Positions 43,923 through 58,848 of a stretch of 64,000 nt of DNA are shown piece by piece; within the stretch, counting starts at the first letter, position 1; each line of letters begins with the position of its first letter. Under the pieces are notes generated by a model that was not told the DNA's origin, did no database searches, and saw nothing but the letters and a program-made list of their open reading frames with translations. The translations under genes and the position numbers were made by a program. This stretch comes from Gemmatimonadales bacterium (GTDB lineage: Bacteria; Gemmatimonadota; Gemmatimonadetes; Gemmatimonadales; GWC2-71-9), in assembly GCA_037916975.1 (NCBI GenBank), contig JBAIWX010000007.1, forward strand, positions 41 to 64,040, read 5' to 3'.

Positions 43923-44747
43923 TCAGCCGCGGAGCAGCGAGAGCACGCCCTGCGAGGACGCGTTCGCCTGCGCCAGCATCGCCACGCCGGCCTGCTGCAG
44001 CACCTGGAACTTCGTGAAGTTCGTGGTCTCCTCCGCCACGTCGAGGTCGCGGATCACCGACTCGGCCGCCTGGATGTTCTGCTTCCGGATGGCCGCGTTG
44101 TCGGCGGCGTAGTCGATGCGGTTCTGCGCCGCGCCGATCTGGCCGATGACCGCCGCGATCTTGGTGCGCGCGCCGGAGAGCGCGGCGAGCGCGCCCGAGG
44201 CGTTCGCGGTGCTGCTGACCGAGGAGCTGTTGAGGCCCAGGGTCGTGAGGTCGAGGGCGTTGATCGAGATCGTGACCTTCGCCGTCGAGGCGGTCGACGA
44301 GCCGACGCGGAAGTCCTTGTTGGCGTAGCCGCCGGTGAGGAGCGCCGTGCCCTGGTACTGCGTTTCACCCACGATCCGGGTGATTTCGTTCTTGAGCTGC
44401 GTGAACTCGGCGTCGAGGTTCGTCTGGTCGCTCGAGGACACGTTCGCGGTCGCCGACGAGGTCGCCAGCTCGCGCATACGGTCGAGGATGCTCGACAGCT
44501 GGTTCACGGTGCCGTCGGCGATGTCGAGCACGGCGCGCGCCTGGGCGGCGTTGCGCTGCGCGGCGCCGAGGGCCTTGGCCTCGCTCCGCAGGCCGTTGGC
44601 GATCGCCGCGCCCGCCACGTCGTCCGCCGACCGGTTGATGCGGAAGCCCGAGGAGAGCTTCTCGATGCTCCGACCGAGGTTCCGGTTGGTGACGGTGAGG
44701 TTGCGGTAGGCGGCGTTCGCCGAGGTGTTGGTCTGGATGACCGACAT
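43923..44747 (-). CDS. fliC: Flagellin
   Basis: 274 aa from ATG 44747 (AGGAG 8 nt upstream). MSVIQTNTSANAAYRNL...SSGFRINRSADD N-terminus, ...LQQAGVAMLAQANASSQGVLSLLRG C-terminus. Short Ser/Thr-rich central region. Confidence 0.95.
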   Translation of the reverse strand: MSVIQTNTSANAAYRNLTVTNRNLGRSIEKLSSGFRINRSADDVAGAAIANGLRSEAKALGAAQRNAAQARAVLDIADGTVNQLSSILDRMRELATSSATANVSSSDQTNLDAEFTQLKNEITRIVGETQYQGTALLTGGYANKDFRVGSSTASTAKVTISINALDLTTLGLNSSSVSSTANASGALAALSGARTKIAAVIGQIGAAQNRIDYAADNAAIRKQNIQAAESVIRDLDVAEETTNFTKFQVLQQAGVAMLAQANASSQGVLSLLRG

Positions 44748-44761: not shown

Positions 44762-46873
44762 TTACCGATGATTCCGCGGCGTCCCTGCCACGGTCCTGCG
44801 GGAGACGGGCCGTTGCCGGCCTCGCAGAGCAGTATCGGCAGTCCCCCCGGCGACTTGAGCCGGGGCCGCCCCGGCGGCCCCCAGCGCGGCGCGGAGGGGG
44901 GCGGTCTCGGCGGTGCCGTCGGCGAACGCCACCGCGAGCTCGAGGCCGGCGAGCGGGGCCACCATCGGCTCGGCGCCGGGGCGCGAGGTGTCGTCCAGCT
45001 CGCGGGCGCTCAGGGTGAGCCGCGCGAACCAGGCGGGCTCGGCGTCCCGGCAGGTCACGAGGCCGAAGAGCGCCGCGGTCGCGGGGTCGGTCTCCACCCG
45101 CACGGCGCGCGTGGCGTCGCCGAGCCACGCGAGGCCCTCGGTCATCCCGAGGCCGGTGCGGCACGAGACGAGGTGCGAGGCGGGCTGCGTGTGGTCCACG
45201 GTGCGGCCGCCGAGGGGGAAGGCCTCCGGCCGGTCGCCGCCCAGGTGGGTCGCGTAGAAGAGGGAGCCCCGGTCGAATCCCTCGGGCCGCAGGGTCAGGT
45301 GGCCGAGCCGGAGGGTCCCGAGCGGCTCGCCGGCGAAGTGGAGGCGCCAGCGCAGCCCCACGCGGGTGCCCGCGCCGGCGACGGTCACGCGCTTCTCGAT
45401 CGGCCCGAGCGGCGTGCCGATGCGCGCGTCGAGGTGCAGCGCCTCCGCCGCGGGGTCCCAGGTGAGCTCGGGCTCCACCGCCTCGAGGTCGGTCACCTGC
45501 GGCTGGCCGAGCGCGGCGAGCACGAGGAAGCCGGTGTACTGGTCGGCGCTCAGGCTCATGTCGGCGAAGTAGCCGTGCGGGAGCGAGCCGTAGAGCGGGC
45601 GGTCGCCGTGTGCGCGGACGGTGCAGGCATCCACCGCGAGCCCGCGGCGGCGGTTGAGCCGCACCACGAGCTCCGGCGTCTCCACCACGACGACGCGCCC
45701 CTCCCGCCGGACCTGCACGTGGTCGGGCCAGTGGCCCCGGCCGTGGCGCGGCGGCGGCGCCGTCGGCGGCGCGGGAGGCGCGAGGCGCGCGCGGGCGGCG
45801 GCCCAGCGACGCGGCGTCACGTGGGTGCGGAGGTCGCTCGCCCAGAGGGTGCAGAGGTCGCGCCAGGCCGCGGGGTCCTGCTCGTCGTGCGCGGCCAGCG
45901 CGCGGTAGCGGCGCCAGCAGGCGGAGTTGAGGCCGAGGTCGTCGCGGCCCGTGATCGCCCAGCGGGAGAGGGTGTACTTCGCCTGCTTCTTGACCGGCAC
46001 CGGCTGCTCCGCGTCCCCGAGCGGGAGCACGGGGCCCTCGGGGTCGAGGAGCGCCAGCGCGTCGGAGGGGAGGGCGAGCTCGATGCCGGGCTCCCGCGCC
46101 AGTGCCCCGGCCAGGTGACGGATCCGGTCCCACTCGACGAGCGCCGGCAGCGCCGCCTCGGTGCGGTACCGTCCCGGGCGGAAGTCGAAGACCTCGGCGT
46201 CGCCGCCGTAGAGCGCGAGTGCCCGTGGCTCGCGGCCGGCGAAGCGGCGGAGGTACTCGAGCAGCTCCTCGGGCTCGAGGTCGCCGTGGGCGAGGCGCTG
46301 GAACTTCTGGAAGGCGATCGAGTGGTTCCACAGCACGGGGAGCGTGGAGCCGTCGGCCCCGAGCGCGCGCTGGGGGCGGAGCCCGAGCTCGCGGGGCCAC
46401 CCGGGGTGCAGCGCCGCCGGGTTCTCCCACTCCATCACCAGCGCCTCGTAGCCGGCCTCCCGGTAGAGCGGCACGAGCGAGGCGGACCACGCCTGCTCGT
46501 TCACCAGCGCGAGCGTCGGCCGCCGGCCGAGGAGGCGCTCGTAGGTCGCGTGGCCGAGGGCGAGGTTCCAGCGGTTCACGCGCGCCGGCACGAGGGGGCC
46601 GATGAGCTGGACGTAGCCCGAGCCGACGAATTCCGCCCGGCCCCGGGCGACGAGGGCGCGCAGCTCCTCGAGCCAGCCGGGATCGAGCTCGGCGATGCGC
46701 TCGAGGGTCCACCCCGACGCCTCGAGCCCCACCGGGAGGTGGCCGTCCCGCGCGAGGGCGAGCAGCGGCCGGTAGCAGCGCTCGATCACCTGCGCGTGCT
46801 GCTCCTCCTCCACCGAGGAGAAGGCCAGGTTCAGGTGGAAGACGGTGTAGAGGCGGAGCGCGGCGGTGCTCAT
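44762..46873 (-). CDS. GH57-like (glycoside hydrolase 57 / polysaccharide-deacetylase-type barrel) protein with large C-terminal domain
   Basis: 703 aa from ATG 46873 (ATGA overlap with the ATP-grasp gene). N-terminus LYTVFHLNLAFSSVEEEQ...GLEASGWTLE...GSGYVQLIGPL resembles GH57-type catalytic domains. Family call is tentative. Confidence 0.55.
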   Translation of the reverse strand: MSTAALRLYTVFHLNLAFSSVEEEQHAQVIERCYRPLLALARDGHLPVGLEASGWTLERIAELDPGWLEELRALVARGRAEFVGSGYVQLIGPLVPARVNRWNLALGHATYERLLGRRPTLALVNEQAWSASLVPLYREAGYEALVMEWENPAALHPGWPRELGLRPQRALGADGSTLPVLWNHSIAFQKFQRLAHGDLEPEELLEYLRRFAGREPRALALYGGDAEVFDFRPGRYRTEAALPALVEWDRIRHLAGALAREPGIELALPSDALALLDPEGPVLPLGDAEQPVPVKKQAKYTLSRWAITGRDDLGLNSACWRRYRALAAHDEQDPAAWRDLCTLWASDLRTHVTPRRWAAARARLAPPAPPTAPPPRHGRGHWPDHVQVRREGRVVVVETPELVVRLNRRRGLAVDACTVRAHGDRPLYGSLPHGYFADMSLSADQYTGFLVLAALGQPQVTDLEAVEPELTWDPAAEALHLDARIGTPLGPIEKRVTVAGAGTRVGLRWRLHFAGEPLGTLRLGHLTLRPEGFDRGSLFYATHLGGDRPEAFPLGGRTVDHTQPASHLVSCRTGLGMTEGLAWLGDATRAVRVETDPATAALFGLVTCRDAEPAWFARLTLSARELDDTSRPGAEPMVAPLAGLELAVAFADGTAETAPLRAALGAAGAAPAQVAGGTADTALRGRQRPVSRRTVAGTPRNHR
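44832..44858 (-). promoter_or_regulatory. Sigma-28 promoter of fliC, embedded in the 3' end of the upstream ORF
   Basis: The minus strand reads CTCAAGT CGCCGGGGGGACT GCCGATAC, i.e. TCAA-N15-GCCGATAC, about 85 nt upstream of the fliC ATG. Confidence 0.65.
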
Positions 46874-48090
46874 GCGGCGGTCCGGATGCCGAGCGCGGCC
46901 ACCGCCGCCTCGGCGCGCGCGACGGCCTCGGCGCGGTCGCGGCCCACGGCGATGGCACAGGCGGCGCGCAGCGTGTGGTTCGACGGGGGTGGCAGCTCGT
47001 CGCCGGGGCGCACGAAGCAGACCACGCGGCGCACGCCCGGGAGCGCCGCCGCGCGCTCCACGCCCTCGACCGCGGTCACGCGGCCCGGGGGCGGGAAGGC
47101 GTAGCGGATCGCCACGCCCTCGGCGCGGACGGGGACGAGCTCCTCCGCGCGGACCGTCTCGCCCAGGGCGAGGCGGATCGCGGCGCCGACGAAGTCCACG
47201 CCCGTGTGGAGCGGGATCTGGTCGGAGGAGAGCCAGCCGCCGCTCAGGCGCGCGGCGATCTCGATCACCTTCGGGCCCTCCGGGGTGAGGACCATGTCTC
47301 CCTTGATCACGCCCCGCGCGATCCCGAGCGCCGCCCCGGCGCGGGCCGCGAGCTCGGCGACGGCGTCGCGGTCCCGCGGCGCCAGCACCGACGGCTGCTG
47401 GCCGCCGTTCTCGATGATGAACGGTGCGTAGCGGTCGAGCAGCTCGTAGTTCCGCTCGGCGAAGCCCAGCGTCACCGTCCGGTCGCCCAGCGCGAGCGCC
47501 TCCGTGCTGAACTGCGGCCCCGTTTCGTATTCCTCGACCATCACCCGCCCGGTCGGGCTGTGGCGCACCGACTCGGCCCACGCCCACGCGGGGTCGGTGT
47601 CGCGCGCGAGGCGGAGGACGCCGCGCGCGCCGCGGCTGTCCACCGGCTTGAGCACGAGGGGGCGTGGGTGGTCGCGGAGGAGCGCGCCGAGCTCGGCGGC
47701 GCCCGCGACCGGACGGAACCACGGCACCGCCACCCCCGCGGCGCGGAGCCGCTCCTTCATGGCGAGCTTGTCCGCGGCCAGGTGCGCCGCGTCGAGCGGC
47801 AGGCCGGGGAGGCCGAGGGCATGGGCGACGGTCGCGACGGTGACGGGCACGTCGGCACCCAGGCTCAGCACGCCGTCCACGCGGCCGCCGGCGGCCCGAT
47901 GCGCCGCCGCGGCCCGCACGACCCCCTCCGGGTCGTAGGTGCTCGCCACGAGCACGTGGTCGGCGAGGCGAGCGCCGGGGGCGTCGGGGTTCAGGTCCGC
48001 GACGGCGACGTCGAGGCCCAGCGCGCGGGCGCGCTCGATGCCGGGGACGGCCTCGAGCCCGCCGCCCACGACGAGGAGCGTCCTACGCAC
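46870..48090 (-). CDS. ATP-grasp domain ligase
   Basis: 406 aa. LLVVGGG pre-ATP-grasp Rossmann region, DKLAMKERL...PLVLKPVDSRGARGV...MVEEY...IEIAARLSGG. Confidence 0.8.
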   Translation of the reverse strand: MRRTLLVVGGGLEAVPGIERARALGLDVAVADLNPDAPGARLADHVLVASTYDPEGVVRAAAAHRAAGGRVDGVLSLGADVPVTVATVAHALGLPGLPLDAAHLAADKLAMKERLRAAGVAVPWFRPVAGAAELGALLRDHPRPLVLKPVDSRGARGVLRLARDTDPAWAWAESVRHSPTGRVMVEEYETGPQFSTEALALGDRTVTLGFAERNYELLDRYAPFIIENGGQQPSVLAPRDRDAVAELAARAGAALGIARGVIKGDMVLTPEGPKVIEIAARLSGGWLSSDQIPLHTGVDFVGAAIRLALGETVRAEELVPVRAEGVAIRYAFPPPGRVTAVEGVERAAALPGVRRVVCFVRPGDELPPPSNHTLRAACAIAVGRDRAEAVARAEAAVAALGIRTAA

Positions 48091-49798
48091 GGGTCCACAT
48101 CCGGTCGAGCGTCTGGCCGGCGAGGAGCATCGGCGAGACGTCCTCGAGCGGGTCCACGACGCAGTGGAGCAGGGCGGGGCCCCTGGCCTCGAGGAGGCGG
48201 GCCACCGCCGCGGGCAGCGCCGCCGCGGCCGAGACCGTCTCCGCCTGCAGCCCGTAGGCGCGCGCGATCGCGGCGAAGTCCGGGTTCCACTTGTCGCCGC
48301 AGGTCGGGTCGCGCTGCCAGTTGAGCCGCTGGAACTGCGATACGATGCCGAGGCGGTGGTTGTCGAGCACGACCACCTTCACCGGCAGCTCGTAGGCGAC
48401 GAGCGTCGCGAGCTCCTGGATGTTCATCTGGAGCGAGCCGTCCCCGACGATGCAGAGCACCGTCGTGCCGGGGGCGCAGTGCTGGGCACCCATCGCCACG
48501 GGCAGGTCGAAGCCCATCGCCCCGTGCCCGCCGGAGGTGAGCCAGCGCCGCGTGGGGAAGTCGAAGTCGAAGTGGCGCGCCACCCACTGCTGGTGCGACC
48601 CGACGCCCGAGACGCAGACCACCGGGCGCCCCGCGGTCGCGCGGTTGAGCCCGGCCACCACCGCCTGCGGCTTGAGCGGGTCGCCGCCCTCGACCCGGAG
48701 GCCGTGCTCGGCCCGCCACGCGGCGAGCTGCGCGTGCCACGGGGCCCGGTCGGGGACGCGCCGGCCCCGCAGCGCGGCGAGGAGCCCGGCGAGGCCGTCC
48801 CGCGCGCCGGCGTGGATCACGCAGTGCGAGGCCACGCGCGGGTGCGCGAGCTCGGCGGGATCGAGCTCGATGCGCACGATCCGCGCGCGCGGCGCGAACT
48901 GGTCGGTGCGCGAGCCGGTCTGCCGCAGGTCGAGGCGCGAGCCCACGACGACGAGCACGTCGGCGTGCTGGATCGCGAGGCCGGCGACCTGGTTGCCGGT
49001 GTGCCCGTGGAAGCCGAGCGCGAGCGGGTGCGCCGTCGGGAAGGCGCCCAGCCCGAGGAGGCTCATCGTCACCGGGATCCCGCCCTCGAGCGCGAGGGCG
49101 CGGAGCTCCGTCTCCGCGCCCGCGAGGAGCACCCCCTGCCCGGCGAGGAGGAGCGGCCGTTCCGCCGTCGCGAGCCACTCCGCCGCCTCTGCGAGGCGCG
49201 CCGGGTCGGGCACCAGGACCGGCGCCGGCTCCGCCGGGGCCGGCACGGCCGCGGGCGCCTCGCCCAGCTGGCCGCGCTGCACGTCCATCGGCAGGTCCAC
49301 GAGCACGGGGCCGGGGCGGCCTTCGCCCGCGAGGCGGAACGCCTCGGCCATCGCGCCCGCGACCTCGGCCGGGGTGCGCGGCTGGAACTGCGCCTTGGTG
49401 ATCGGCGCCATGAGGGCGACGGTGTCCACCTCCTGGAAGCCCCGCTGGCGCACCGGCCGGGTGCCGCGCATGTCCCCGGTGCCGACCTGGCCGGTGCACA
49501 CCACGAGCGGCACCGAGTCGAACCAGGCGTCGGCGACCGGGGTCACGACGTTCGTGACGCCGGGTCCCGAGGAGACGAGCACCACCTGCGTGCTGCCGTG
49601 GATGCGCGCGGCGGCGAGCGCGGCGTAGCCGGCGCCCTGCTCGTGCCGGGGGCAGAGGATGCCGATGCCCGCGTCCTCGAGGAGGTCGAGCACCGGGGCG
49701 ATCGTGCCGCCCGGATAGACGTACGCCGACTCGATCGCGTGGCGCCGGAAGGCCGCGACGACCGCGTGGGCGCCGGTGAGGACGAGCGTGTCAACCAA
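48083..49798 (-). CDS. Thiamine-diphosphate-dependent enzyme (acetolactate-synthase-like/YerE-like carboligase)
   Basis: 571 aa. PGGTIAPVLD...HEQGAGYAA...SGPGVTN N-domain, and the ThDP motif IVGDGSLQMNIQELAT. Confidence 0.85.
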   Translation of the reverse strand: MVDTLVLTGAHAVVAAFRRHAIESAYVYPGGTIAPVLDLLEDAGIGILCPRHEQGAGYAALAAARIHGSTQVVLVSSGPGVTNVVTPVADAWFDSVPLVVCTGQVGTGDMRGTRPVRQRGFQEVDTVALMAPITKAQFQPRTPAEVAGAMAEAFRLAGEGRPGPVLVDLPMDVQRGQLGEAPAAVPAPAEPAPVLVPDPARLAEAAEWLATAERPLLLAGQGVLLAGAETELRALALEGGIPVTMSLLGLGAFPTAHPLALGFHGHTGNQVAGLAIQHADVLVVVGSRLDLRQTGSRTDQFAPRARIVRIELDPAELAHPRVASHCVIHAGARDGLAGLLAALRGRRVPDRAPWHAQLAAWRAEHGLRVEGGDPLKPQAVVAGLNRATAGRPVVCVSGVGSHQQWVARHFDFDFPTRRWLTSGGHGAMGFDLPVAMGAQHCAPGTTVLCIVGDGSLQMNIQELATLVAYELPVKVVVLDNHRLGIVSQFQRLNWQRDPTCGDKWNPDFAAIARAYGLQAETVSAAAALPAAVARLLEARGPALLHCVVDPLEDVSPMLLAGQTLDRMWTRA

Positions 49799-50522
49799 GG
49801 TGGAACCCTCCGTTCACGCCGAGCACCTGCCCGGTGACGTAGCCTGCGGCGGGCGACGCGAGGAAGGCGATGGCGTCCGCCACTTCCCCGGCGCTGCCGG
49901 CCCGGCCGAGCGGGACCTGCTGGAGCTTCTGCGCGGCGCCCGCGCTCGCGCGCTCGGCGGCGGTCATCTCGGTCTCGATGAGGCCCGGGGCGACGGCATT
50001 CACGCGGACGCGCGGGGCCCCGAGCCGGGCCAGCGAGCGCGTCAGGCTGATGAGCGCCGCCTTGCTCGCGGCGTAGTGCACGGCGAGCGTCCCGCCCACC
50101 TGCCCGCCGACCGAGCTCACGTTCACCACCGTGCCGGAGGCGTCCTCGAGCAGCGGCCACGCCTCCTGGCAGAGCTGGAAGACGCCCCGGAGGTTCACGG
50201 CGAGCATCTCGTCCCACTCGTCGTCGGTGATCGCGGACCACGGCTTCTGCACGAGCATCCCCGCGTTGTTGACCAGCAGGTCGAGCCCGCCCCACGCGGC
50301 GCGCACGGCGGCGACGAGGGTGCGCGCCGAGGCGCGCTCTCCCTGCGCGTAGGGCAGCGCGAGTGCGCGCCGGCCGATGGCGGAGATGGCGGCGGCGGCG
50401 TCCTGCGCCTCGCGCTCGCGCCGGTGCCAGGTGACGGCGACGTCCCAGCCGGCGCGGGCGAGGGCCAGCGCCGTCGCCCGGCCGATCCCCCGGCCGCCCC
50501 CGGTCACGAGCGCGCGCGGCAC
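49791..50522 (-). CDS. Short-chain dehydrogenase/reductase (FabG-like)
   Basis: 243 aa from GTG 50522. TGGGRGIG, NNAG, S...YAASK catalytic motif, PGLIET. Confidence 0.85.
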   Translation of the reverse strand: MPRALVTGGGRGIGRATALALARAGWDVAVTWHRREREAQDAAAAISAIGRRALALPYAQGERASARTLVAAVRAAWGGLDLLVNNAGMLVQKPWSAITDDEWDEMLAVNLRGVFQLCQEAWPLLEDASGTVVNVSSVGGQVGGTLAVHYAASKAALISLTRSLARLGAPRVRVNAVAPGLIETEMTAAERASAGAAQKLQQVPLGRAGSAGEVADAIAFLASPAAGYVTGQVLGVNGGFHLG

Positions 50523-50524
50523 GG

Positions 50525-51772
50525 TCAGTAGGCCTCGACGCGGTCGTAGAGCCGCACGATCCGCCCGGCGGGCACGCCGAGTTCCTGCGCGGCGGCCGCG
50601 ATCGCCCCGGTGTGGCCGTACGAGGAGACGACGAGGCACGCATCCGCCCAGTCCACGGCGGCGAGCGCGTCGGGGGGCACGATGGGGAGCCCGCGCCAGC
50701 GGCGGCCGAGCTTCACGGGGTCGCGGTCCACGAGGAGGAACTCGCGGCCCGGGTCGTGGAAGAGCGTCGTAAGCTGGTGCAGGAACTCGGTGTGCGCCCC
50801 CGCGCCCCAGATCGCCACCCGCCGGAAGGGGTGCACGGCGGCGAGCCGGGCCTCGACCCGCGCCACGGCGCGGTGCCAGCCGGCGAGGTAGTCGAGGAGG
50901 CGGGCGTGGTCGCCCTCGCTCGCGGTGGGTGCCCGCGGGGTGGCGGGCCGGGCGACGACGCGGCAGCCGCCGTAGCCCGGCGCCATCCACGTCTCGACGA
51001 TCGCCCAGCCGGCGCGCGCGAGCGTCTCCGCGAGGGTGTGCCGGCTGAAGTGCGTCGTGTGCTGGACGGAGAAGAAGCCGTTGATGTCCTCGCGGAGGCC
51101 GGTCTCGAGCACCGGCACCTCGACCACGAGGGCCGTGCCGGCGTGCGCGATGCGCCGCAGGTTCTCGAGCACCTGCACCGGGCGGGGCAGGTGCTCGAGG
51201 ACCATGAACATGGTGATCACGTCGGGCACGGTCGCCGGGCGGAAGTGCTCGAAGTCGCCCAGGACCAGCTCCACCGGCTCGCCTGCGAGGCGTGCGCGGG
51301 CCCGCTCGAGGGCGGGGGCGTCGAGGTCCACGCCGACCTTCCGGAGCCCGGGGCCCATCGTGGCGAGGAGCCGCCCCTCGAAGCAGCCGGCGTCGAGCAC
51401 CGCGGCGCCCGGCTCGAGGAGGCCGCGGGCGCGGAGCCAGGCGACCTGCTCCTCGGGCCGTCCTTCGGTGCTCAGGTACGACTGGCCGGCCTCCGCGAAG
51501 AGGCAGGCGTAGCCGTAGGGGGTGTAGACCGGGTCGAGGTAGAGCGCGAGGCAGTCGCGGCACTGCCGTTCGCGGACATCCACCCGCTTCGGCACCGTCG
51601 CCGAGTCGGTGAAGAACTGGAAGTCGGAGAGCTCGAGCACGGTGCGGGCCCGCCGCGAGTCGCAGACCGGGCAGGGGCGGTGCATGAGCAGCGCGGCGTC
51701 GGTGCGCGCGGGCGCGGCGGCGTCGAGCGCGCTCCAGCGCGCCGCAGGCGCGGCGACAGGGGCGGCAGTCAT
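50525..51772 (-). CDS. SAM-dependent methyltransferase with N-terminal Zn-ribbon and C-terminal Rossmann-like domain (sugar C-methyltransferase architecture)
   Basis: 415 aa. CPVC...CRDC, VLDAGCFEGRL SAM motif, and a C-terminal VAIWGAGAHTEFL domain. Confidence 0.7.
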   Translation of the reverse strand: MTAAPVAAPAARWSALDAAAPARTDAALLMHRPCPVCDSRRARTVLELSDFQFFTDSATVPKRVDVRERQCRDCLALYLDPVYTPYGYACLFAEAGQSYLSTEGRPEEQVAWLRARGLLEPGAAVLDAGCFEGRLLATMGPGLRKVGVDLDAPALERARARLAGEPVELVLGDFEHFRPATVPDVITMFMVLEHLPRPVQVLENLRRIAHAGTALVVEVPVLETGLREDINGFFSVQHTTHFSRHTLAETLARAGWAIVETWMAPGYGGCRVVARPATPRAPTASEGDHARLLDYLAGWHRAVARVEARLAAVHPFRRVAIWGAGAHTEFLHQLTTLFHDPGREFLLVDRDPVKLGRRWRGLPIVPPDALAAVDWADACLVVSSYGHTGAIAAAAQELGVPAGRIVRLYDRVEAY

Positions 51773-52506
51773 CGGATCCCCGAGGGCACGGCGCGGGGCA
51801 CGTGCCGGTTCAGGTCCACGAGGTCGGGCCGGGCGTCGAGCGCGGCCAGGAGGTCGGTCGTCCGGAACGGGCGCGGGAGCGCATCGAGCGCCCCGGCGAG
51901 TGTATCGGCGAAGGCGAGGTCGGCGGGGTCGTCCACCGAGAGCCGGAGGCCGGGCCGGGCGGCGTCACGCGCGGGAATCGGGATCTCCGCCACGCGGAGC
52001 GTGCCGAGCCGGTGCCGCGCGAGGAGGGCGAGGTGCTCGCGCTCGGCGGGGTCGGTCACCGTCGGCGCGAGCGCCGCGAGCGTGGCGACCCGCCAGGGGT
52101 CGATCCCCTCGTGGATGCTCGGCCGGTCGCCGGTGGCGCAGTCGGCGCCGGTGGCCCGCATCACCCGCACGGCGGCGTCCACCACGTCGGGGCAGAGGAA
52201 GGGGCAGTCGCCCGTGATGCGGAGGACGACGTCGAGCGACCAGCGGCGGGCGGCGTCGAGATACCGCTGCAGCACGTCGTCCACCGGCCCGCGATGGCAG
52301 GGGACGCCCGCCGCGTCGCACCACGCCGCGACGGCGTCGTCGCCCGGGTCGGTGGTCGTCGCGACGGCGACGAGGTCGAGCGTGGTCGCGAGCCGGAGCC
52401 GTTCCACCGCGCGCGCGAGCAGCGGCCGGCCGGCGATCGGCCGGAGGACCTTGCCCGGCAGCCGCGTGCTGCCCATGCGGGCCTGGACGACGGCGCCCGC
52501 CCTCAT
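51769..52506 (-). CDS. Cytidylyltransferase (SpsF/PseF-like nonulosonate CMP-transferase family)
   Basis: 245 aa from ATG 52506. AVVQARMGSTRLPGKVL...RITGDCPF. Confidence 0.7.
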   Translation of the reverse strand: MRAGAVVQARMGSTRLPGKVLRPIAGRPLLARAVERLRLATTLDLVAVATTTDPGDDAVAAWCDAAGVPCHRGPVDDVLQRYLDAARRWSLDVVLRITGDCPFLCPDVVDAAVRVMRATGADCATGDRPSIHEGIDPWRVATLAALAPTVTDPAEREHLALLARHRLGTLRVAEIPIPARDAARPGLRLSVDDPADLAFADTLAGALDALPRPFRTTDLLAALDARPDLVDLNRHVPRAVPSGIR

Positions 52507-53483
52507 GCGGCCTCCGCGAGCTCGGCGGCGAGGGCCGCGAGGCGCGCCGCCCCGTCGGCTTCCGCGAGTGCCTCGCGGGCGCGGGGTGCGGAGCCGCCGC
52601 ACCACACGGGGTCCAGCACCGTCTCGGCGAGCCGCGCCGTGACCGCCGCCGCGTCGAAGGCATGCCCGGCACCGGCGAAGGCGCCGACGCCCGCGGCCTC
52701 GAGCCGGCGGGCGGCGGCGTCGTCCTCCGCACGATGGGACAGCCACGCGACCGGCGTGCCGAGCGCGCCGGCGTCGTAGGCGGTGGTGCCGAAGCCGGTG
52801 ATCACGGCGCGGGCGCCCGCGAGGCGGCGGACGAGCTCCCCGCGCGTGGGGGCGCGGAGCACCGTCGCGCCCCGCGCCGCGAGGCGCTCGGCGCGCGCGG
52901 CGTCCATGGCGGGGCCGGCGACCACCGTCACGGCGCCCGCCTGCGGCAGCGACGCGAGCAGGTCGTACAGCCGCTCCGTCAGGCCGAGCGGGTCGGCGCC
53001 GCCCACCGTGAGGAGCGTCCCGTGGCGCCCGTCGGGCCAGCGGGTCGCGACGTGAGTCCGGACCTCCGGCGCCAGCAGGCACCAGGCGGCGCCGTGGAGC
53101 GCGGGGGTGCCCGGCGGGAGGTCGGCGTGCAGGGCGGGGATGACCGTCCGCGTCGCCGCATCGAGGCAGTCCACGCGGTCGAGCACGATCGTCGGCGCAC
53201 CGGCGCGGCGCGCCGCGGCGAGGATCGCGGCGACGTCCCGGCGCGTGTCCACCAGCAGGCATCGCGCGTCGCGCACCGTGGACGCGGGCTCCCCCCAGCC
53301 GGCCACCTCCGCCCGGGGCCGCTCCCGCGCGAGCGCGCGGCGCGCCGCCAGGTCGCCCTCGAGGTGGAACCGGCTCGAGAGCCCGCGCCGGTCGGCCGCT
53401 TCGGCGACGCTCAGGCAGCGATAGAGGTGGCCCAGGCCCTCGCGGGCGTCGGCGCTCGTCACGAACGCGAGGTCGGTGCTCAC
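52503..53483 (-). CDS. PseG/SpsG-like UDP-sugar hydrolase (GT28 C-terminal-like fold)
   Basis: 326 aa from GTG 53483 (GTGA overlap). FVTSADAREGLGHLYRCLSVAEA...TVGGADP...ITGFGTTAYD. Confidence 0.55.
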   Translation of the reverse strand: MSTDLAFVTSADAREGLGHLYRCLSVAEAADRRGLSSRFHLEGDLAARRALARERPRAEVAGWGEPASTVRDARCLLVDTRRDVAAILAAARRAGAPTIVLDRVDCLDAATRTVIPALHADLPPGTPALHGAAWCLLAPEVRTHVATRWPDGRHGTLLTVGGADPLGLTERLYDLLASLPQAGAVTVVAGPAMDAARAERLAARGATVLRAPTRGELVRRLAGARAVITGFGTTAYDAGALGTPVAWLSHRAEDDAAARRLEAAGVGAFAGAGHAFDAAAVTARLAETVLDPVWCGGSAPRAREALAEADGAARLAALAAELAEAA

Positions 53484-54340
53484 GGCGCCACCAGCCCGGC
53501 GCGCGTCGCGCGGAGGGGGCGGAGCCCGTCGTGCGGGTCGGCGCGCCACGCGCGGTCGGGCGCCTCGCTCGGCGCGGGGACCTTCGTGCCGCTGCCGTCG
53601 GCGGCGTCCGCCTCGCGCACCTGCGCGATGAGCGCCCGCATCGGCTCGGGGAGCCAGCAGTGGCCGGTGCGGAACTCGTCCCCCTGGCCGTCGAGGTCGA
53701 GGTGGAACTCGACGAACGACGCCCCCCAGCGGTGCACCGCGCGGTGGATCACGCCGGGGCGCACGCTGTGGTCGGACCAGCCCACCGCGCAGCGGAACTG
53801 CCGGCGCAGCGTCTCGAGCGCCGCGAGGTTGCAGTCCTCGAGCGGCGTCGGGTAGCCGGAGACGCAGTGGAGCAGCGTCAGGTCGCGCGCCCCCGCGCCG
53901 CGGGCCACCGCGACGGCGTGGCCGATCTCGTCGAGGGTCGCCATCCCGGTGGAGAGCACGAGCGGCTTCCCGGTCGCCGCGCAGGCCCGCAGGAGCTCGT
54001 CCCAGAGCAGCTCGTACGAGGCCACCTTGTAGAACGCGACGAAGGGCCGCAGCTCCTCGACCGCCTCGAGGTAGAACGGCGTGCAGCCGAAGGCGACGCC
54101 GCGGTCGGCGCACCGGCGCGCGATGGGCTCGAGGAAGGCGACCGGCAGCTCCCACGCCTCGCGGGCCCGCAGCTGCGCGTGGCGCGCGAGGGCCTCCGGG
54201 GCGAAGAGCTCCCGCACCCGGAAGAGCTGGAACTTGACGGCGTCGCAGCCGATGTCGGCCGCCGCGTCCACGAAGGCGAGGCAGCGGTCGAGGTCCCGGC
54301 CGTGGTTGCTCGATACCTCGGCGACGAAGCGCACGCTCAT
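53480..54340 (-). CDS. NeuB-family nonulosonic acid synthase (PseI/SpsE-like), no SAF domain
   Basis: 286 aa. VAEVSSNHGRDLDRCLAFVDAAADIGCDAVKFQ...KVASYEL...STGMATLDEI...LLHCVSGYPTP...GWSDHS. Confidence 0.8.
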   Translation of the reverse strand: MSVRFVAEVSSNHGRDLDRCLAFVDAAADIGCDAVKFQLFRVRELFAPEALARHAQLRAREAWELPVAFLEPIARRCADRGVAFGCTPFYLEAVEELRPFVAFYKVASYELLWDELLRACAATGKPLVLSTGMATLDEIGHAVAVARGAGARDLTLLHCVSGYPTPLEDCNLAALETLRRQFRCAVGWSDHSVRPGVIHRAVHRWGASFVEFHLDLDGQGDEFRTGHCWLPEPMRALIAQVREADAADGSGTKVPAPSEAPDRAWRADPHDGLRPLRATRAGLVAP

Positions 54341-55497
54341 GCCGCCTCCCGCACCCGCCCGACCACCTCGCGCACCGTCGCGATGACGGTGGCGACGTCG
54401 GCGTCGCCGAGCGCGGGGTACATCGGGAGCGAGATGGCCCCCGCGTAGTACGCCTCCGCCTGCGGCAGCGTCGTCGTGGCATGGCCGGTCCGCCGCCAGT
54501 ACGGGTGCCGGTACACGGGGAGGTAGTGCACGTTCACGAGCAGCCCCGCGGCGCGGAGCGCCTCGAACGTGGCGCGGCGGCGGCCGGCGGGCACCCGGAT
54601 CACGTAGAGGTGGTAGCTCCCCTCCGACCAGGCCGGGGAGCGCAGCGGCGCGAGGCCCGGCACGCCGTCGAAGGCGGCGTCATACCGCGCGGCGATCTCC
54701 CGGCGCCGCGCGACGAAGGCGGGCAGCCGGCGCAGCTGGCTCCGGCCGAGCGCGCACTGGAGGTCGGTGATCCGGTAGTTGAAGCCGAGCTCGTGCTGCT
54801 CGTAGTACCACGGCCCCTCGTCGCGGGTCAGCTCGGCCGGGTCGCGCGTGATCCCATGGGTGCGGAACCGGCGGAGCCGCGCGGCGAGCGCGGCGTCGTT
54901 GGTCGTGACCGCGCCGCCCTCGCCGGTCGTGATGTGCTTCACGGGGTGGAAGCTGAAGCAGCACATCGCGCTGTGGGCGCACGCGCCGACCCGGTGCCAG
55001 CGGCCGTCGGCCGTGCGGTAGCGCGCGCCCAGCGCGTGCGCCGCGTCCTCGACGATCGCCCAGCCGCGCCGGGCCGCGACCGCCGCGAGGCGCTCGAGGT
55101 CCGCGACGTGGCCCGCGAGGTGGACGGGCACGACCGCCCCGACCTCGGGCGCCATCTCGCGCGCCACGGCCTCGGGGTCGAGCAGCGCGAAGGCGGGGTC
55201 CACGTCCGCGAAGCGGACCGGGGCGCCCAGGTAGCGCGCGGCGTTCGCCGTGGCGGCGAAGGTGATCGGGGAGGTGAGGATGCCGCGGTCCGGCCCGAGG
55301 TCGAGCGCCGCGTAGGCGGCGTGCAGCGCGGCGGTGCCGCTGTTGAACGCCACGGCGAAGCGCGCGCCGACCGCGGCGGCGAGGTCGGCCTCGAACGCCT
55401 CGACCCCCGGTCCCTGCGTCAGGGCGGGGGCACGGACCGCCGCCATCACCGCGGCGACGTCCGACTCGTCGATCCACTGCCGGCCGTAGGGGAGCAT
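54337..55497 (-). CDS. pseC: UDP-4-amino-4,6-dideoxy-N-acetyl-beta-L-altrosamine transaminase (DegT/DnrJ/EryC1 family)
   Basis: 386 aa from ATG 55497. MLPYGRQWIDESDV start typical of PseC. SFHPVKHITTGEGG contains the PLP-Lys. Confidence 0.8.
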   Translation of the reverse strand: MLPYGRQWIDESDVAAVMAAVRAPALTQGPGVEAFEADLAAAVGARFAVAFNSGTAALHAAYAALDLGPDRGILTSPITFAATANAARYLGAPVRFADVDPAFALLDPEAVAREMAPEVGAVVPVHLAGHVADLERLAAVAARRGWAIVEDAAHALGARYRTADGRWHRVGACAHSAMCCFSFHPVKHITTGEGGAVTTNDAALAARLRRFRTHGITRDPAELTRDEGPWYYEQHELGFNYRITDLQCALGRSQLRRLPAFVARRREIAARYDAAFDGVPGLAPLRSPAWSEGSYHLYVIRVPAGRRRATFEALRAAGLLVNVHYLPVYRHPYWRRTGHATTTLPQAEAYYAGAISLPMYPALGDADVATVIATVREVVGRVREAA

Positions 55498-55499
55498 CG

Positions 55500-56519
55500 T
55501 CAGAGGAGCCCCTGCGTCGCGAGGAGCTCGCGCACCTGCGTCACGGTGAGCCGCTCGGGGTTCGTGTCGCTCCGGTACACGAAGTCGTCCGGCACGGCGT
55601 GGCCGTTCTGCCGGGCGTAGTGCCCGTTCCACCAGGGGAAGTGCGGCTGGACGACGTAGTAGTCGCCCATGTCGAGCGTCGTGCGCGCGTCGTCGGCGGA
55701 GATCATGAGCTCGTGGAGCTTCTCCCCGGGCCGGATCCCCACGTGCCGGAGCGGGACGCCGGGCGCCACCGCCTCGGCGACCGTCAGGATGTCGGCGGAG
55801 GGGATCTTCGGCACGAAGAGCTCGCCGCCCAGCATCCGGCCGAGCGAGGCGAGGACGAATTGGACGCCCTGCTCGAGGGTGATCCAGAAGCGCGTCATCC
55901 GCTCGTCGGTGATGGGCAGGAACCCCTCCCGGCGCTGCTCCAGGAAGAAGGGGACCACGCTGCCGCGGCTCCCGACCACGTTGCCGTACCGGACGACGGC
56001 CATCCGCGGGCCGCGACCGCCGCTGTAGGCGTTGCCCGCGACGAAGAGCTTGTCCGAGCAGAGCTTCGTGGCGCCGTAGAGGTTGACCGGGTTCGCCGCC
56101 TTGTCGGTGCTGAGCGCCACGACGCGCTCGACGCCGCGGCTCACCGCCGCGTCGATGACGTTCTGGGCGCCCAGGATGTTCGTCTTGATGCACTCGAACG
56201 GGTTGTACTCCGCCGCCGGCACCTGCTTGAGCGCCGCGGCGTGGACCACGATCTGCACGTCGTCGAGCGCGCGGTGGAGCCGCTCGGCGTCGCGCACGTC
56301 GCCGAGGAAGAAGCGCATCCGGGGGTCCGGGAACTGCCGCTGCATCTCCGACTGCTTGAGCTCGTCGCGGCTGTAGACGATCACGCGCCGCGGGTTGTGG
56401 TGCTGCAGCAGCTCGGCCACGAAGGCCCGGCCGAACGAGCCGGTGCCGCCGGTCACGAGGAAGGACCGGCCGTCGAAGAGGTTGGCGGAGTACATCCGCG
56501 CTTCGGACGCGGCGCTCAT
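55500..56519 (-). CDS. pseB: UDP-N-acetylglucosamine 4,6-dehydratase (inverting)
   Basis: 339 aa from ATG 56519. LVTGGTGSFG, STDKAANPVNLYGATK, VRYGNVVGSRGSV. Confidence 0.85.
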   Translation of the reverse strand: MSAASEARMYSANLFDGRSFLVTGGTGSFGRAFVAELLQHHNPRRVIVYSRDELKQSEMQRQFPDPRMRFFLGDVRDAERLHRALDDVQIVVHAAALKQVPAAEYNPFECIKTNILGAQNVIDAAVSRGVERVVALSTDKAANPVNLYGATKLCSDKLFVAGNAYSGGRGPRMAVVRYGNVVGSRGSVVPFFLEQRREGFLPITDERMTRFWITLEQGVQFVLASLGRMLGGELFVPKIPSADILTVAEAVAPGVPLRHVGIRPGEKLHELMISADDARTTLDMGDYYVVQPHFPWWNGHYARQNGHAVPDDFVYRSDTNPERLTVTQVRELLATQGLL

Positions 56520-58243
56520 GCGGGACTCCCGATGGATTGGGGTGCCCGCCGCGGGCGGCGGGCGCGGGGACCGCGGGCGATGCGCCGCAGCGCCGCGAGC
56601 TTGCGCGGCAGCGGCGCGGCGTCGGCCCGCGCGTAGCTGGCGAGGGGATGCGGCCCCGCGGGGGGGCGGAGCGCCCGCAGTGCGGCGGCGAGCTCGGCCG
56701 CCGTGCGCGTCACGGCCACCGGGGCGCGGTCGAGCCAGGTGACGCCGGCGCCCGAAAGGTGGACCACGAAGGGCACGCCGAGCTGCGCGGCCGCGAAGAG
56801 CGTCGTGGACGAGCCGGTGATGGCGCCGTCCGCCCCGTGCAGCACCGTCCAGGGGTCGAGGCCCGTCTCGATGCGCACGTCCGGGAAGCCGCGCTCGGCG
56901 CAGTGCCCACGGATCATGTCCGGGTTGTCGTGGAACGGGTGGCACTTCACCACGATCTCGGCGCCCGGGTGCACCTCGGCGAGCGCGGTGAGCGCATCGT
57001 CCAGCATCGCCTCCCCGTGCAGGACCGAGGCCTCCGCGTTCCACGGCGCGCCGGTGGGCGACGGGAGGATCACGAAGCGCTTCCGCGGGGCGGGCGGCAC
57101 CGGCTCGTCCCGGAGCGCGGCGAGGTGCGCCCCCGCCTGCGGCCAGCCGATCACCCAGCGCTCGCCGTGGAACGCCGCGCGATCGAGCTCGCGCGCCGCC
57201 TCGCGGCTCCAGACGAGGTGGTGGTCCGCGTAGCGGTGGTTCGGGTGCCCTGCCTCGATGCCCATGAAGGCGCCGTGCTGCACCAGCACCGTGGGGATGC
57301 CGAGGCGCCGGCAGGCGAGGAGCTTCGCGCGGTGCTCGGGAAAGTAGTCGTTGCCGGTCACGAGGAGGCGCACCTCGGCCGCCGCATAGGCGGCGCGCGC
57401 GTACTCGTACTCCTCGACGAGGTGCGGCTGCCAGAGGAGCGCCAGGTGCACCGCCAGCTCGCGCTCCCACGGCTCGGCGAGCGTCTCGAGCGCGGCGGGG
57501 CAGCCGGGGTCCTCGAGCGGGGCGCGCGCCTCGCGCGCCTCCGCCCGCGCGACCGGCCCGTCGTAGGTCGCCGGCCAGCGGGCCCGCTCCTCCTGGATGA
57601 ACTCGAGCACCCGGCCGCGCGACGCGAGCAGGTCGGGCATCAGGTGCGCGATCTCGTTGGTGTGGTGCACGAGCGCGCGCGGCGCGCGGCTCCTCGGCAG
57701 CGTGCGGCCGCGCCAGCTCGGCCGCACGAAGTCCTGCGGCCGCGGCATGAGCGGGTAGTCGTGGCGGCGCGAGATCGTCTCGGCGCGGTCGTCGTGCGGG
57801 TCGAAGGCCGCCGTCGGGACCTCGAGCTCCTGGCAGGTGAGGTTGATCACCGCCCCCTGGATCCAGCCCTCGAGGTCGTGCACGACCGCCGTCCGGCTCC
57901 CGAGGCGGTCGAGGCCCGCCTGCACGAGCCGGCGCGTCCGCGCCCCCTGGCTGCTCACGTAGAGCAGGGGCAGCTCGAGCGCCCACCACGCCCAGTCGGC
58001 GTAGGAGGTCGTCGCCGGCATGGTCGTGCCGGTGACCGCGCGCACGAGGCGCGACGTGTGGTGCTGCATCGCCAGCCGCTCGGCGGGACCGAGGAGCTCG
58101 TCCTCGAGGAGGCAGGGGATGTCGAGCTCGGCGCAGACGTCGCGGGTGGCCGTGGACCAGGTGCCCACGAGCGCGGGGCGCTCGCCGGCACGCACCAGCT
58201 CGAGCACGCTGCGGCCGCTGTTGAGGATGGCGAGAAAAGACAT
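56516..58243 (-). CDS. Large GT-B-like protein, candidate (flagellin) glycosyltransferase
   Basis: Track ORF 56516..58279 (TTG). ATG 58243 (MSFLAILNSG) is preferred. The C-terminal Rossmann-like half has VVKCHPFH and ITGSSTTLFAAAQLGVP. No named family recognised. Confidence 0.5.
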   Translation of the reverse strand: MSFLAILNSGRSVLELVRAGERPALVGTWSTATRDVCAELDIPCLLEDELLGPAERLAMQHHTSRLVRAVTGTTMPATTSYADWAWWALELPLLYVSSQGARTRRLVQAGLDRLGSRTAVVHDLEGWIQGAVINLTCQELEVPTAAFDPHDDRAETISRRHDYPLMPRPQDFVRPSWRGRTLPRSRAPRALVHHTNEIAHLMPDLLASRGRVLEFIQEERARWPATYDGPVARAEAREARAPLEDPGCPAALETLAEPWERELAVHLALLWQPHLVEEYEYARAAYAAAEVRLLVTGNDYFPEHRAKLLACRRLGIPTVLVQHGAFMGIEAGHPNHRYADHHLVWSREAARELDRAAFHGERWVIGWPQAGAHLAALRDEPVPPAPRKRFVILPSPTGAPWNAEASVLHGEAMLDDALTALAEVHPGAEIVVKCHPFHDNPDMIRGHCAERGFPDVRIETGLDPWTVLHGADGAITGSSTTLFAAAQLGVPFVVHLSGAGVTWLDRAPVAVTRTAAELAAALRALRPPAGPHPLASYARADAAPLPRKLAALRRIARGPRARRPRRAPQSIGSPA

Positions 58244-58368
58244 GCCCGCCGGGTGAGCAAGCGGCGGGCCATGGTCCAAGTCGTTGATTTACTGCGCGTT
58301 GCGAGTCGTCGCCGAGTCCGGGTCGGCAGGGTCTTCCGGCGGGCGCGGCAAGGTCTGCCGCCGGGCGA

Positions 58369-58848
58369 CTATCCCTGCAACTGGGCCCGCAGGTCCAGTT
58401 CGTGGCGGGTGTGCCAGGGCGAGTCGTGCGCGACGAACTGCCGGGCGACGTGGCGGCGCCGGTCGATCAGCAGGGGGGCCTGCAGGTTGACGGTGCAGGG
58501 CGCCGAGCGATCCGCGGGCAGGGTCACGATGCAGCGGACGTCGAGGTCGCCGTCCCGCGTCGCCTGCTCCTCCTCGTCGGTGCCGTCCACGACGTCCAGC
58601 GCGAAGTCGGCGAAGAAGCGGAAGGGGTCCACCGTGAGGAAGACGACGCCGGCATCGCCCGTCTCCTGCAGCCACGCGATCCCCTCGGCGGGGGTCGGGA
58701 GCAGGACGAAGTCCCGCTCGCCGGCGAAGCCGAGCAGCCCCTCGGGGAAGTGGATGAAGTCGCGGCGGTCCACGGTCAGCGGCCCGAAGAGCCGGGTGCG
58801 GATCGTCACCGGCTCCGCGGCCGCCGGGGTGAGGGCGGGTGCGCTCAT
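58369..58848 (-). CDS. fliW: Flagellar assembly factor FliW
   Basis: 159 aa from ATG 58848 (ATGA overlap with flgL). IHFPEGLLGFAGERDFVLLP...IAWLQE...FLTVDPF...TVNLQAPLLI. Confidence 0.85.
   Translation of the reverse strand: MSAPALTPAAAEPVTIRTRLFGPLTVDRRDFIHFPEGLLGFAGERDFVLLPTPAEGIAWLQETGDAGVVFLTVDPFRFFADFALDVVDGTDEEEQATRDGDLDVRCIVTLPADRSAPCTVNLQAPLLIDRRRHVARQFVAHDSPWHTRHELDLRAQLQG

Follow-up and report, generated by a model that had tools for sequence, protein, structure and literature searches.

A probable Maf-less variant of the Shewanella Sfm-type flagellin glycosylation locus in a Gemmatimonadales flagellar gene cluster

The ~28-kDa flagellins of Shewanella oneidensis MR-1 carry a glycan that is O-linked to serines (Bubendorfer et al. 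2013, PMC3765264). The associated operon sfmABCDE (SO_3261-3265) encodes SfmA, a 290-aa NeuB-domain protein homologous to PseI only in its N-terminal domain, SfmB, a 581-aa IlvB-like thiamine diphosphate (ThDP) enzyme, SfmC, a 255-aa short-chain dehydrogenase/reductase (SDR) resembling 3-oxoacyl-acyl carrier protein reductases, SfmD, a 395-aa S-adenosylmethionine (SAM) methyltransferase, and SfmE, a 412-aa ATP-grasp protein (PMC3765264). In-frame deletions of sfmA, sfmB, sfmC or sfmD abolished flagellin modification and motility; deletion of sfmE led to a slightly smaller flagellin mass shift and less spreading in soft agar, with the filament retained (PMC3765264). Two parts make up the MR-1 glycan, a 274-Da mono-N-acetyl nonulosonate (C11H18N2O6) and a C9H16O7 moiety that lacks nitrogen and bears 0-2 methyl groups (236, 250 or 264 Da), and PseB and PseC are present in this strain while clear orthologues of PseH, PseG, PseI and PseF are missing (PMC3765264). 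The Sfm glycan was still termed an atypical pseudaminic acid (Pse) derivative in a 2023 preprint, and in our literature search the name sfmABCDE occurred in no paper other than PMC3765264. Here we compare with this system an 11-gene locus located within 64 kb of DNA from a Gemmatimonadales bacterium (contig JBAIWX010000007.1, positions 41 to 64,040; hereafter called the window).

The locus occupies positions 58243-44762 on the minus strand of the window, between fliW and fliC, and we read it as a form of the Sfm-type flagellin glycosylation locus of Shewanella that does without Maf. Very probably the operon serves flagellin glycosylation with a nonulosonic acid of a modified Pse type, and we consider it likely that, as a native flagellar operon, it makes a CMP-activated Sfm-type pseudaminic acid derivative that is attached to flagellin. 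An earlier note on this DNA had proposed a flagellin glycosylation locus for a modified Pse-type sugar, a proposal supported by the domain calls and the flagellar location; the additional branched sugar that it also suggested may be made as well. The window has a G+C content of ~76%, and its raw lists of open reading frames (ORFs) are cluttered. Translation of the coordinates gave 11 minus-strand ORFs without interruption, and the boundaries were reproduced in three ways, by this translation, by a frame plot of codon-position GC (GC3) and by an independent GC3-based gene caller. In gene order the intergenic distances are -4, +2, -4, -4, -4, -4, +2, -8, -8 and -4 nt, exactly matching the 11 genes and the junction overlaps and gaps given in the earlier note; the 8-nt overlaps between the SDR and ThDP genes and between the ThDP and ATP-grasp genes were also found in the Gemmatimonadales relative L004. 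The distance to fliC, previously put at 15 nt, is 14 nt when measured from the TAA of the last gene to the fliC ATG (CAGGAGCAGTCCCC). Family-model scans of each ORF upheld the domain content assigned earlier to the 11 proteins. The genes of the operon and its two immediate neighbours are:

56516-58243, minus strand: gene 1, GT-B-fold protein, 575 aa; AlphaFold2 (AF2) model with two Rossmann domains and a predicted local distance difference test (pLDDT) score of 83
55500-56519, minus strand: gene 2, PseB, inverting UDP-GlcNAc 4,6-dehydratase, 339 aa; TIGR03589, 515 bits (cut-off 408)
54337-55497, minus strand: gene 3, PseC aminotransferase, 386 aa; TIGR03588, 467 bits (cut-off 423.5)
53480-54340, minus strand: gene 4, short SfmA-type NeuB-family synthase, 286 aa; PF03102, 209 bits, SAF absent
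52503-53483, minus strand: gene 5, divergent PseG-like protein, putative UDP-sugar hydrolase, 326 aa; TIGR03590
51769-52506, minus strand: gene 6, cytidylyltransferase of the CMP-sugar synthetase type, 245 aa; PF02348 (CTP_transf_3), 90.7 bits
50525-51772, minus strand: gene 7, SAM methyltransferase in SfmD position, 415 aa; Methyltransf_23, _11 and _12 matches
49791-50522, minus strand: gene 8, FabG-like SDR in SfmC position, 243 aa; adh_short_C2, 204 bits
48083-49798, minus strand: gene 9, ThDP enzyme in SfmB position, resembling the large subunit of acetohydroxyacid synthase (AHAS), 571 aa; all three TPP_enzyme domains
46870-48090, minus strand: gene 10, ATP-grasp carboxylate-amine ligase of the L-amino-acid-ligase type in SfmE position, 406 aa; LAL_C2, ATP-grasp_3 and ATPgrasp_N
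44762-46873, minus strand: gene 11, protein with the fold of glycoside hydrolase families 57 and 38 (GH57/GH38), (beta/alpha)7 barrel plus beta-sandwich, 703 aa; PF03065, 60.3 bits (cut-off 21.2)
43923-44747, minus strand: fliC, 274 aa, Flagellin_N and Flagellin_C matches, presumed glycan acceptor
58369-58848, minus strand: fliW, PF02623, 96 bits; 4-nt overlap with the flgL stop

Judged by family, size and clustering, five extra enzymes of this operon, namely a short NeuB, an IlvB-like ThDP enzyme, a FabG-like SDR, a methyltransferase and an ATP-grasp protein, correspond to sfmABCDE. The products of genes 9, 8, 7 and 10 measure 571, 243, 415 and 406 aa, against the 581, 255, 395 and 412 aa published for their Sfm counterparts. 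In two Shewanella loci (L074 and L076) the gene order is NeuB-ThDP-SDR-methyltransferase-ATP-grasp, with a GH57-like gene and a gene for a 573-aa cytidylyltransferase fusion next downstream; L074 also contains pseC and pseB, and its locus is bounded on one side by Maf-2 and GlfM and on the other by a Maf-1 bearing tetratricopeptide repeats (TPRs). The proteins of genes 4, 9, 8, 7, 10, 11 and 6 are 61, 47, 38, 25, 47, 40 and 28% identical to Shewanella proteins, the values for genes 4 (SfmA position), 9, 8, 7 and 10 referring to Shewanella sp. L074. Ten of the eleven operon genes have a counterpart in the Shewanella locus, the exception being gene 1. The enzyme combination that the earlier note did not recognise from described loci is the published sfmABCDE set (PMC3765264).

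The setting of the operon is flagellar throughout. On the same strand it is preceded by flgL (59753-58845) and fliW and followed by fliC, fliD and fliS, while the opposite strand carries the gene of a sigma-54-dependent response regulator/activator (59882-61306) and then flgB, flgC, fliE and fliF. About 24 kb of the window (40-64 kb) are flagellar cluster. A motif search with regular expressions in all six frames of the window found no CsrA-like gene, and the usual fliW-csrA pairing is absent. The GC3 of the 11 operon genes (0.95-0.99) equals that of the flanking flagellar genes, which points to an insertion in the gene order rather than to compositionally foreign DNA; horizontal acquisition of the operon as foreign DNA was rejected on this ground. 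In the flagellin, Ser and Thr account for 32% of residues 141-190 but for 19% and 11% of the helical parts on either side, and the peptide quoted in the earlier note for a short 274-aa flagellin with a Ser/Thr-rich centre is present.

Genes 2 and 3 were assigned as PseB and PseC equivalogs through the NCBIfam cut-offs, and their early steps, from UDP-GlcNAc to UDP-4-amino-4,6-dideoxy-beta-L-AltNAc, are the secure part of the route. Gene 4 scores below the NeuB and PseI equivalog cut-offs (162 on TIGR03586, cut-off 340), gene 5 reaches 40.8 bits on TIGR03590 (E 1.9e-10, cut-off 153.6) and gene 6 stays under the PseF and KdsB equivalog cut-offs (23 on the PseF model TIGR03584, cut-off 206). The PseG-like gene 5 product is predicted to remove UDP, after which the short, SAF-less SfmA-type NeuB would condense the hexose with phosphoenolpyruvate (PEP) and the cytidylyltransferase of gene 6 would form the CMP-sugar; in Shewanella and Geoalkalibacter the PseG-like part is fused to the C-terminus of the cytidylyltransferase. 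Pfam and NCBIfam scans found a GNAT or other acetyltransferase domain in none of the 11 operon proteins, hence PseH is missing from the operon and the 4-amino group (N7 of the final sugar) would probably not be acetylated. The absence of PseH fits the mono-N-acetyl 274-Da core known from Shewanella. From the homology with S. oneidensis, the expected product is a 274-Da mono-N-acetyl nonulosonate with a nitrogen-free C9H16O7 appendage carrying 0-2 methyl groups.

Gene 1 would take the place of Maf or FlmG, transferring the sugar to Ser/Thr residues in the exposed centre of FliC before export. Its AF2 model has the two-Rossmann GT-B fold, which bears out the label "GT-B-like" given to it earlier, and in Foldseek searches the model matched best to UDP-GlcNAc 2-epimerases and GT-B transferases. 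The protein passes no family cut-off in Pfam or NCBIfam, with a sub-threshold DUF6716 match only, and its sequence yielded nothing at E<=10 against the Protein Data Bank (PDB). Apart from gene 1 itself, a word-indexed search of 5.8 billion proteins returned 9 homologues, and when 1.84 billion representatives were searched exhaustively with a profile, only 12 fell below 1e-30. In ~1,800 more distant proteins the similarity is confined to the C-terminal ~280 residues. Members of the family show weak Glyco_transf_4 and KpsC/KpsS-type Capsule_synth matches. Capsule_synth is matched weakly by four of ten family members, of which P0125 reaches 23.3 bits (cut-off 20), and the window protein has no match. 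The best PDB match of the family profile is KpsC, not significant at E 0.11, in an alignment that spans the invariant H435-P436 and the S-T motif following it. One distant relative matches Pfam Epimerase_2.

All seven loci holding a member of the gene 1 family are flagellar clusters, and a metagenome scan for relatives added only two further loci. The order flgL-fliW-gene 1-PseB-PseC of the window recurs in L091; in L087 and L088 the gene 1 homologue is divergent from flgB-flgC-fliE-fliF, and in L089, L090 and L092 it lies beside fliS. The sugar genes differ among these loci, with an FAD amine-oxidase-like protein and a methyltransferase in L087 and L091, additionally WbqC and a full-length NeuB with SAF in L087, and PseB, a PIG-L deacetylase and a methyltransferase in L092. 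A position beside fliS or fliW in spite of differing sugar genes is what would be expected of an enzyme directed at flagellin rather than of a pathway enzyme.

Known transferase types were also looked for. Shewanella Maf-1, Maf-2 and GlfM gave no tblastn match in the 64-kb window, the domain PF01973, which the Shewanella Mafs match at 1e-27 to 1e-40, was found in none of the window proteins scanned against Pfam, and no Maf, GlfM or FlmG-like gene was detected in the window. Gene 1 itself was rejected as a Maf, having no MptE-like/DUF115 domain (PF01973/MAF_flag10) and no similarity, and as an FlmG, having no TPR and no similarity, Caulobacter crescentus FlmG itself being compared by description only. 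TPRs occur in none of gene 1, the nine other members of the family alignment and the ten distant relatives scanned. A sister Gemmatimonadales locus (L004/L053, positions 1-1924) has a TPR protein of >640 aa in the slot of gene 1 before PseB, with its C-terminal ~300 residues unassigned; gene 1 shows no similarity to it. This protein may be an FlmG-like transferase, which, if so, would suggest that transferase modules have been swapped in front of the same sugar operon.

On these grounds gene 1 is the best candidate for the flagellin nonulosonate O-glycosyltransferase, with context as the strongest evidence and the chances for and against this role about balanced. We tentatively extend this, with somewhat less than even confidence, to a third class of flagellin nonulosonate transferases, unrelated to Maf and FlmG, that would be a ~575-aa GT-B family, remotely related to KpsC/KpsS in its C-terminal domain, confined to Gemmatimonadota-like flagellar clusters and combinable with different Pse-type pathways; independently of this, a widespread SDR/ATP-grasp/GH57-like/ThDP module would build a nitrogen-free C9 appendage on Pse-type sugars in many phyla. 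The alternative that fares best accepts the biosynthetic assignments and denies the transferase role: gene 1 would be a NeuC/PseG-like hydrolysing epimerase, a UDP-sugar hydrolase or an accessory factor, and the glycosylation of flagellin would fall to the GH57-like protein or to a Maf or FlmG whose gene lies in another part of the genome. The top structural matches to UDP-GlcNAc 2-epimerases and the Epimerase_2 match of a distant relative speak for it, as do the failure of the window protein to pass any family cut-off, a view limited to 64 kb of the genome and the TPR protein in the same slot of the sister locus, which indicates other transferase types in this lineage. However, a PseG-like gene is already present (gene 5), homologues adjoin fliS or fliW even with other sugar genes or with sugar genes at a distance (L089, L090, L092), KpsC, a CMP-Kdo transferase, can be aligned at the HP and S-T motifs, the Capsule_synth cut-off is exceeded by one member of the family, and the window holds no Maf, GlfM or FlmG-like gene. 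We regard a non-transferase gene 1 as possible but rather unlikely.

The accessory enzymes encoded by genes 7-11 concern the further decoration of the sugar. Gene 7 combines an N-terminal four-Cys motif (CPVC-x33-CRDC), a SAM domain in the middle and, at the C-terminus, a Rossmann-like extension of ~130 aa, a layout that we take to resemble TcaB9/TylC3-type NDP-sugar C-methyltransferases, without Pfam support. For Shewanella, NMR indicated O-methyl groups. In most related loci an SDR gene directly precedes the ATP-grasp gene or stands upstream of the ThDP gene. Gene 9 scores 494.6 on TIGR00118, under the cut-off of 538.35; the nearest solved protein is the large subunit of Escherichia coli AHAS I (347 bits), and no AHAS small-subunit gene adjoins it. 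The nearest solved protein to gene 10 is the L-amino acid ligase BL00235. For gene 11, the AF2 model (pLDDT 84) gave 1K1X as top Foldseek match (E 6e-22), followed by GH38 mannosidases, and the family-invariant residues E126 and D225 align with the nucleophile and acid/base motifs of GH57 (LTERVW and HDDGEKF of 1K1W). What we take to be the HQP-type region I motif of GH57 reads FHLN in the gene 11 family consensus. Nothing relevant came up in literature searches that paired GH57 with flagellin and pseudaminic acid, nonulosonic acid with ATP-grasp enzymes and transketolase, or acetolactate synthase (ALS) with pseudaminic acid.

Under the E-value cut-offs used, the ATP-grasp and GH57-like proteins have 2,366 and 2,249 homologues, respectively, and the best 120 matches to either protein show 46-79% identity along practically their whole length. 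We screened a comparative set of 80 species-level genome loci, anchored on the ATP-grasp gene, with the window proteins. The GH57-like gene is directly downstream of the ATP-grasp gene in 51 of the 70 loci with enough sequence and occurs anywhere in 67 of 80. An SDR is encoded in 67 loci, a short NeuB in 41, PseC in 31 and PseB in 28; gene 1 is absent from all 80. The ThDP enzyme is ALS-like in 29 loci and a split transketolase in 33, never both; 18 loci, many of them truncated contigs, have neither. This mutual exclusivity points to two analogous solutions for one ThDP-dependent, presumably C2-transferring step and suggests, as far as gene content can tell, that transfer of a C2 unit is the conserved chemistry of the cassette.

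In the proposed route the AHAS-like ThDP enzyme would take a two-carbon unit, bound to ThDP, from pyruvate and join it to a carbonyl acceptor, with the split transketolase as its equivalent in other lineages. The SDR would then reduce the ketone arising from the ThDP step, the methyltransferase would O-methylate, the ATP-grasp ligase would form an amide bond late in the pathway, and the GH57/GH38-fold protein, with its catalytic Glu and Asp kept, would perform a glycosyl-transfer or hydrolysis step. Since in Shewanella the ThDP enzyme and the methyltransferase are essential and the ATP-grasp protein is dispensable for the filament, analogy suggests that the ThDP step belongs to the core route and that the ATP-grasp reaction is a late decoration. 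By its formula, C9H16O7 could be a hexose plus C3H6O2, a heptose plus C2H4O or a 1-deoxynonulose; several structures fit and none is singled out.

A different use of the same enzymes is known from yersiniose, which is built by YerE, a ThDP enzyme resembling the AHAS large subunit. Gene 9 could similarly add a two-carbon branch to the 4-keto product of PseB, with the SDR reducing the branch like YerF, and the outcome would be a separate branched deoxy sugar that forms the nitrogen-free appendage, instead of an acyl or side-chain precursor. This would agree with the AHAS-like character of gene 9 and the lack of an adjoining small-subunit gene, with the requirement of the Shewanella ThDP enzyme for any glycosylation, with the nitrogen-free appendage, and with the exchange of ALS-like and transketolase-like enzymes, which fits a step of C2-unit transfer. 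Yet the operon has no second set of nucleotide-sugar activation and glycosyltransferase genes, unless the GH57-like protein serves in this role, and the C9H16O7 increment is not a simple hexose plus C2H4O, the data favouring no particular acceptor. We regard a YerE-like route as a live but rather unlikely alternative, slightly less probable than a non-transferase gene 1.

The operon and fliC appear to be read from promoters of different classes. Three promoter-type elements were located:

58256-58271, minus strand: sigma-54-type promoter motif TGGCCCGCCGCTTGCT, whose TTGC (-12) element ends 13 nt before the gene 1 ATG
44833-44858, minus strand: sigma-28 (FliA)-type promoter TCAAGTC-N12-GCCGATA (TCAA-N15-GCCGATA), inside the 3' end of gene 11 and 86 nt before the fliC ATG
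41637-41662, minus strand: second sigma-28-type promoter, downstream of fliS and ahead of small genes including an FlgM-like gene (40754-41071)

The sigma-54-type pattern has 2 matches in the 64 kb, with 0.06 expected, and the window encodes a sigma-54 activator at 59882-61306, as described above. Near-identical motifs with the same spacing precede gene 1 homologues of 44-47% identity in L087 (TGGCCCGCCGCTTGCG, ~3030-3065) and L091 (TGGCAAGGCGATTGCC, ~9970-10001). No Shine-Dalgarno sequence was found between the motif and the gene 1 ATG, and together with the 13-nt distance of the -12 element this suggests a leaderless or near-leaderless operon transcript. Abutting the start codon in this way, the sigma-54 promoter would drive the entire translationally coupled operon. 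The -12 element is partly covered by an inverted repeat (GCCCGCCG...CGGCGGGC, 58262-58244) that extends to the gene 1 start codon; the hairpin was considered as a terminator and set aside, because of this overlap with promoter motif and start codon and because its run of T residues falls within the coding sequence. The sole other sigma-54-type match (25565-25580, plus strand) precedes a cluster at 25565-33000 with an Fe-S flavoprotein, multihaem c-type cytochromes and a protein with an MtrC/MtrF-like domain (28032-30083).

The sigma-28 pattern T[CA]AA-N15-GCCGATA likewise has 2 matches in the window, with 0.00 expected. The lineage-specific consensus TCAAGTC...GCCGATA is also found before fliC in L092, ~30 nt upstream of the flgM-like gene of L092, and in the flagellar loci of the related metagenome-assembled genomes L053 and L031. 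With its fliC promoter inside gene 11, the arrangement implies that the glycosylation machinery would be made before most of the flagellin, since the operon would be switched on together with genes of the sigma-54 class and flagellin would follow from a separate promoter.

The cassette is found far beyond the Gemmatimonadales. Its hosts include Desulfobacterota, Geobacter, Geoalkalibacter, Gammaproteobacteria and Acidobacteriota besides Gemmatimonadales, and further Chloroflexota, Planctomycetota, Firmicutes and Spirochaetales. The nearest full cassettes are those of uncultured Gemmatimonadales (L053, identical with L004, and L031), at 57-74% identity per protein. An actinobacterial origin of the window, which its 76% G+C might suggest, was rejected in view of these nearest relatives and of the sigma-54 activator gene. 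Flagellar genes lie at most 10 kb from the cassette in 20 of the 80 loci, and within this distance the other 60 have none. In Geoalkalibacter, Chromatiaceae, Tenderia and Plasticicumulans, among others, the next gene after the cassette encodes flagellin; in Geoalkalibacter ferrihydriticus it comes directly after the GH57-like gene. Two cassette contigs are binned as archaeal: L012, from a metagenome-assembled genome of Methanothrix sp., and L055, a 13-kb contig of a Marine Group I thaumarchaeote. L012 encodes PseB, PseC, short NeuB, cytidylyltransferase, SDR, ThDP enzyme, ATP-grasp and GH57-like proteins, L055 only the SDR and ATP-grasp proteins. These contigs represent either a non-flagellar surface use of the cassette or mis-binning.

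That the nonulosonic acid is made for another surface glycoconjugate (LPS O-antigen, capsule or S-layer protein) and that the flagellar position is incidental seems very improbable: the 60 loci mentioned and the contigs binned to Methanothrix and a thaumarchaeote, which lack bacterial flagella, are in its favour, but the operon sits between fliW and fliC, 14 nt from fliC and with the fliC promoter inside its last gene, the scanned window genes include none for polysaccharide export or a polymerase, and the orthologous Shewanella genes are required for flagellin modification while the relatives of gene 1 are exclusively flagellar.

Several points weigh against our reading of the locus as a native operon for an Sfm-type flagellin glycan. 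For this organism it draws on gene content and analogy. The cassette is not intrinsically flagellar, as seen from the 60 loci without flagellar genes nearby and the two archaea-binned contigs. Orthology with MR-1 was inferred through other Shewanella species and the published gene sizes, the methyltransferase being just 25% identical, and what the ThDP enzyme, the SDR, the ATP-grasp protein and the GH57-like protein are proposed to do is chemical guesswork; the Shewanella phenotypes argue against a ThDP enzyme that merely makes an acid attached by the ATP-grasp ligase. The likeness of gene 1 to CMP-sugar transferases is mostly sub-threshold (best PDB E-value 0.11), and as the best structural matches of its model are epimerases it could be a nucleotide-sugar enzyme. 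Finally, the genome beyond these 64 kb could contain a gene for Maf, FlmG or PseH.

With this reading, an apparent oddity becomes a member of a very widespread cassette, for which the experiments so far are the cited Shewanella genetics and mass spectrometry. Three features appear to be new here, the presence of gene 1 in place of Maf or FlmG, the sigma-54-type promoter abutting the gene 1 ATG and the sigma-28-type fliC promoter inside the last gene. The distribution data provide constraints for solving the Sfm chemistry, namely that an ALS-like enzyme or a transketolase is present and never both, that the ATP-grasp and GH57-like genes are coupled and that the GH57 catalytic residues are kept. 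The gene 1 family is a concrete candidate for a new class of flagellin glycosyltransferases, of interest for acceptor specificity and glyco-engineering.

Compared with described systems, the single enzymes have relatives in quite different contexts. Gene 11 shares its whole barrel and beta-sandwich architecture with the GH57 4-alpha-glucanotransferase of Thermococcus litoralis (1K1W/1K1X) and with GH38 alpha-mannosidases, but at a sequence identity of ~14%, and sits in a nonulosonate cassette, coupled to an ATP-grasp ligase. With YerE/YerF of the yersiniose pathway, where YerE was compared by description only, the operon has in common an AHAS-like ThDP enzyme, a reductase and a deoxysugar route from a 4-keto intermediate; here, in contrast, the 4-keto sugar is also the substrate of an aminotransferase, and the pathway would end in a nonulosonate. 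Gene 1 presumably has the role of Maf and FlmG, is like them encoded in a flagellar and sugar locus, and has a GT-B fold like the C-terminal domain of FlmG. Of the beta-Kdo transferases KpsC and KpsS, which use CMP-Kdo, KpsC aligns with the C-terminal Rossmann domain of the gene 1 family across the HP and S/T motifs, whereas its N-terminal half is unrelated, its acceptor would be a protein instead of a lipid-linked glycan, and the match of the window protein itself is not significant.

At the level of pathways, the canonical PseB-C-H-G-I-F route of Campylobacter, Helicobacter and Aeromonas shares with the window the PseB and PseC equivalogs and the logic of a UDP-sugar that is hydrolysed, condensed with PEP and activated with CMP, but the window has no PseH, its PseG, PseI and PseF counterparts score far under the cut-offs, the synthase has no SAF, and five extra enzymes are added. 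The Shewanella locus is closer. [quoted passage not shown] Shared with the S. oneidensis Sfm locus are the short NeuB, ThDP enzyme, SDR, methyltransferase, ATP-grasp protein, PseB, PseC and cytidylyltransferase, the absence of PseH, the location in a flagellar cluster and a short flagellin of ~270 aa, and in congeneric Shewanella the GH57-like gene comes right after sfmE, just as gene 11 follows gene 10 in the window.

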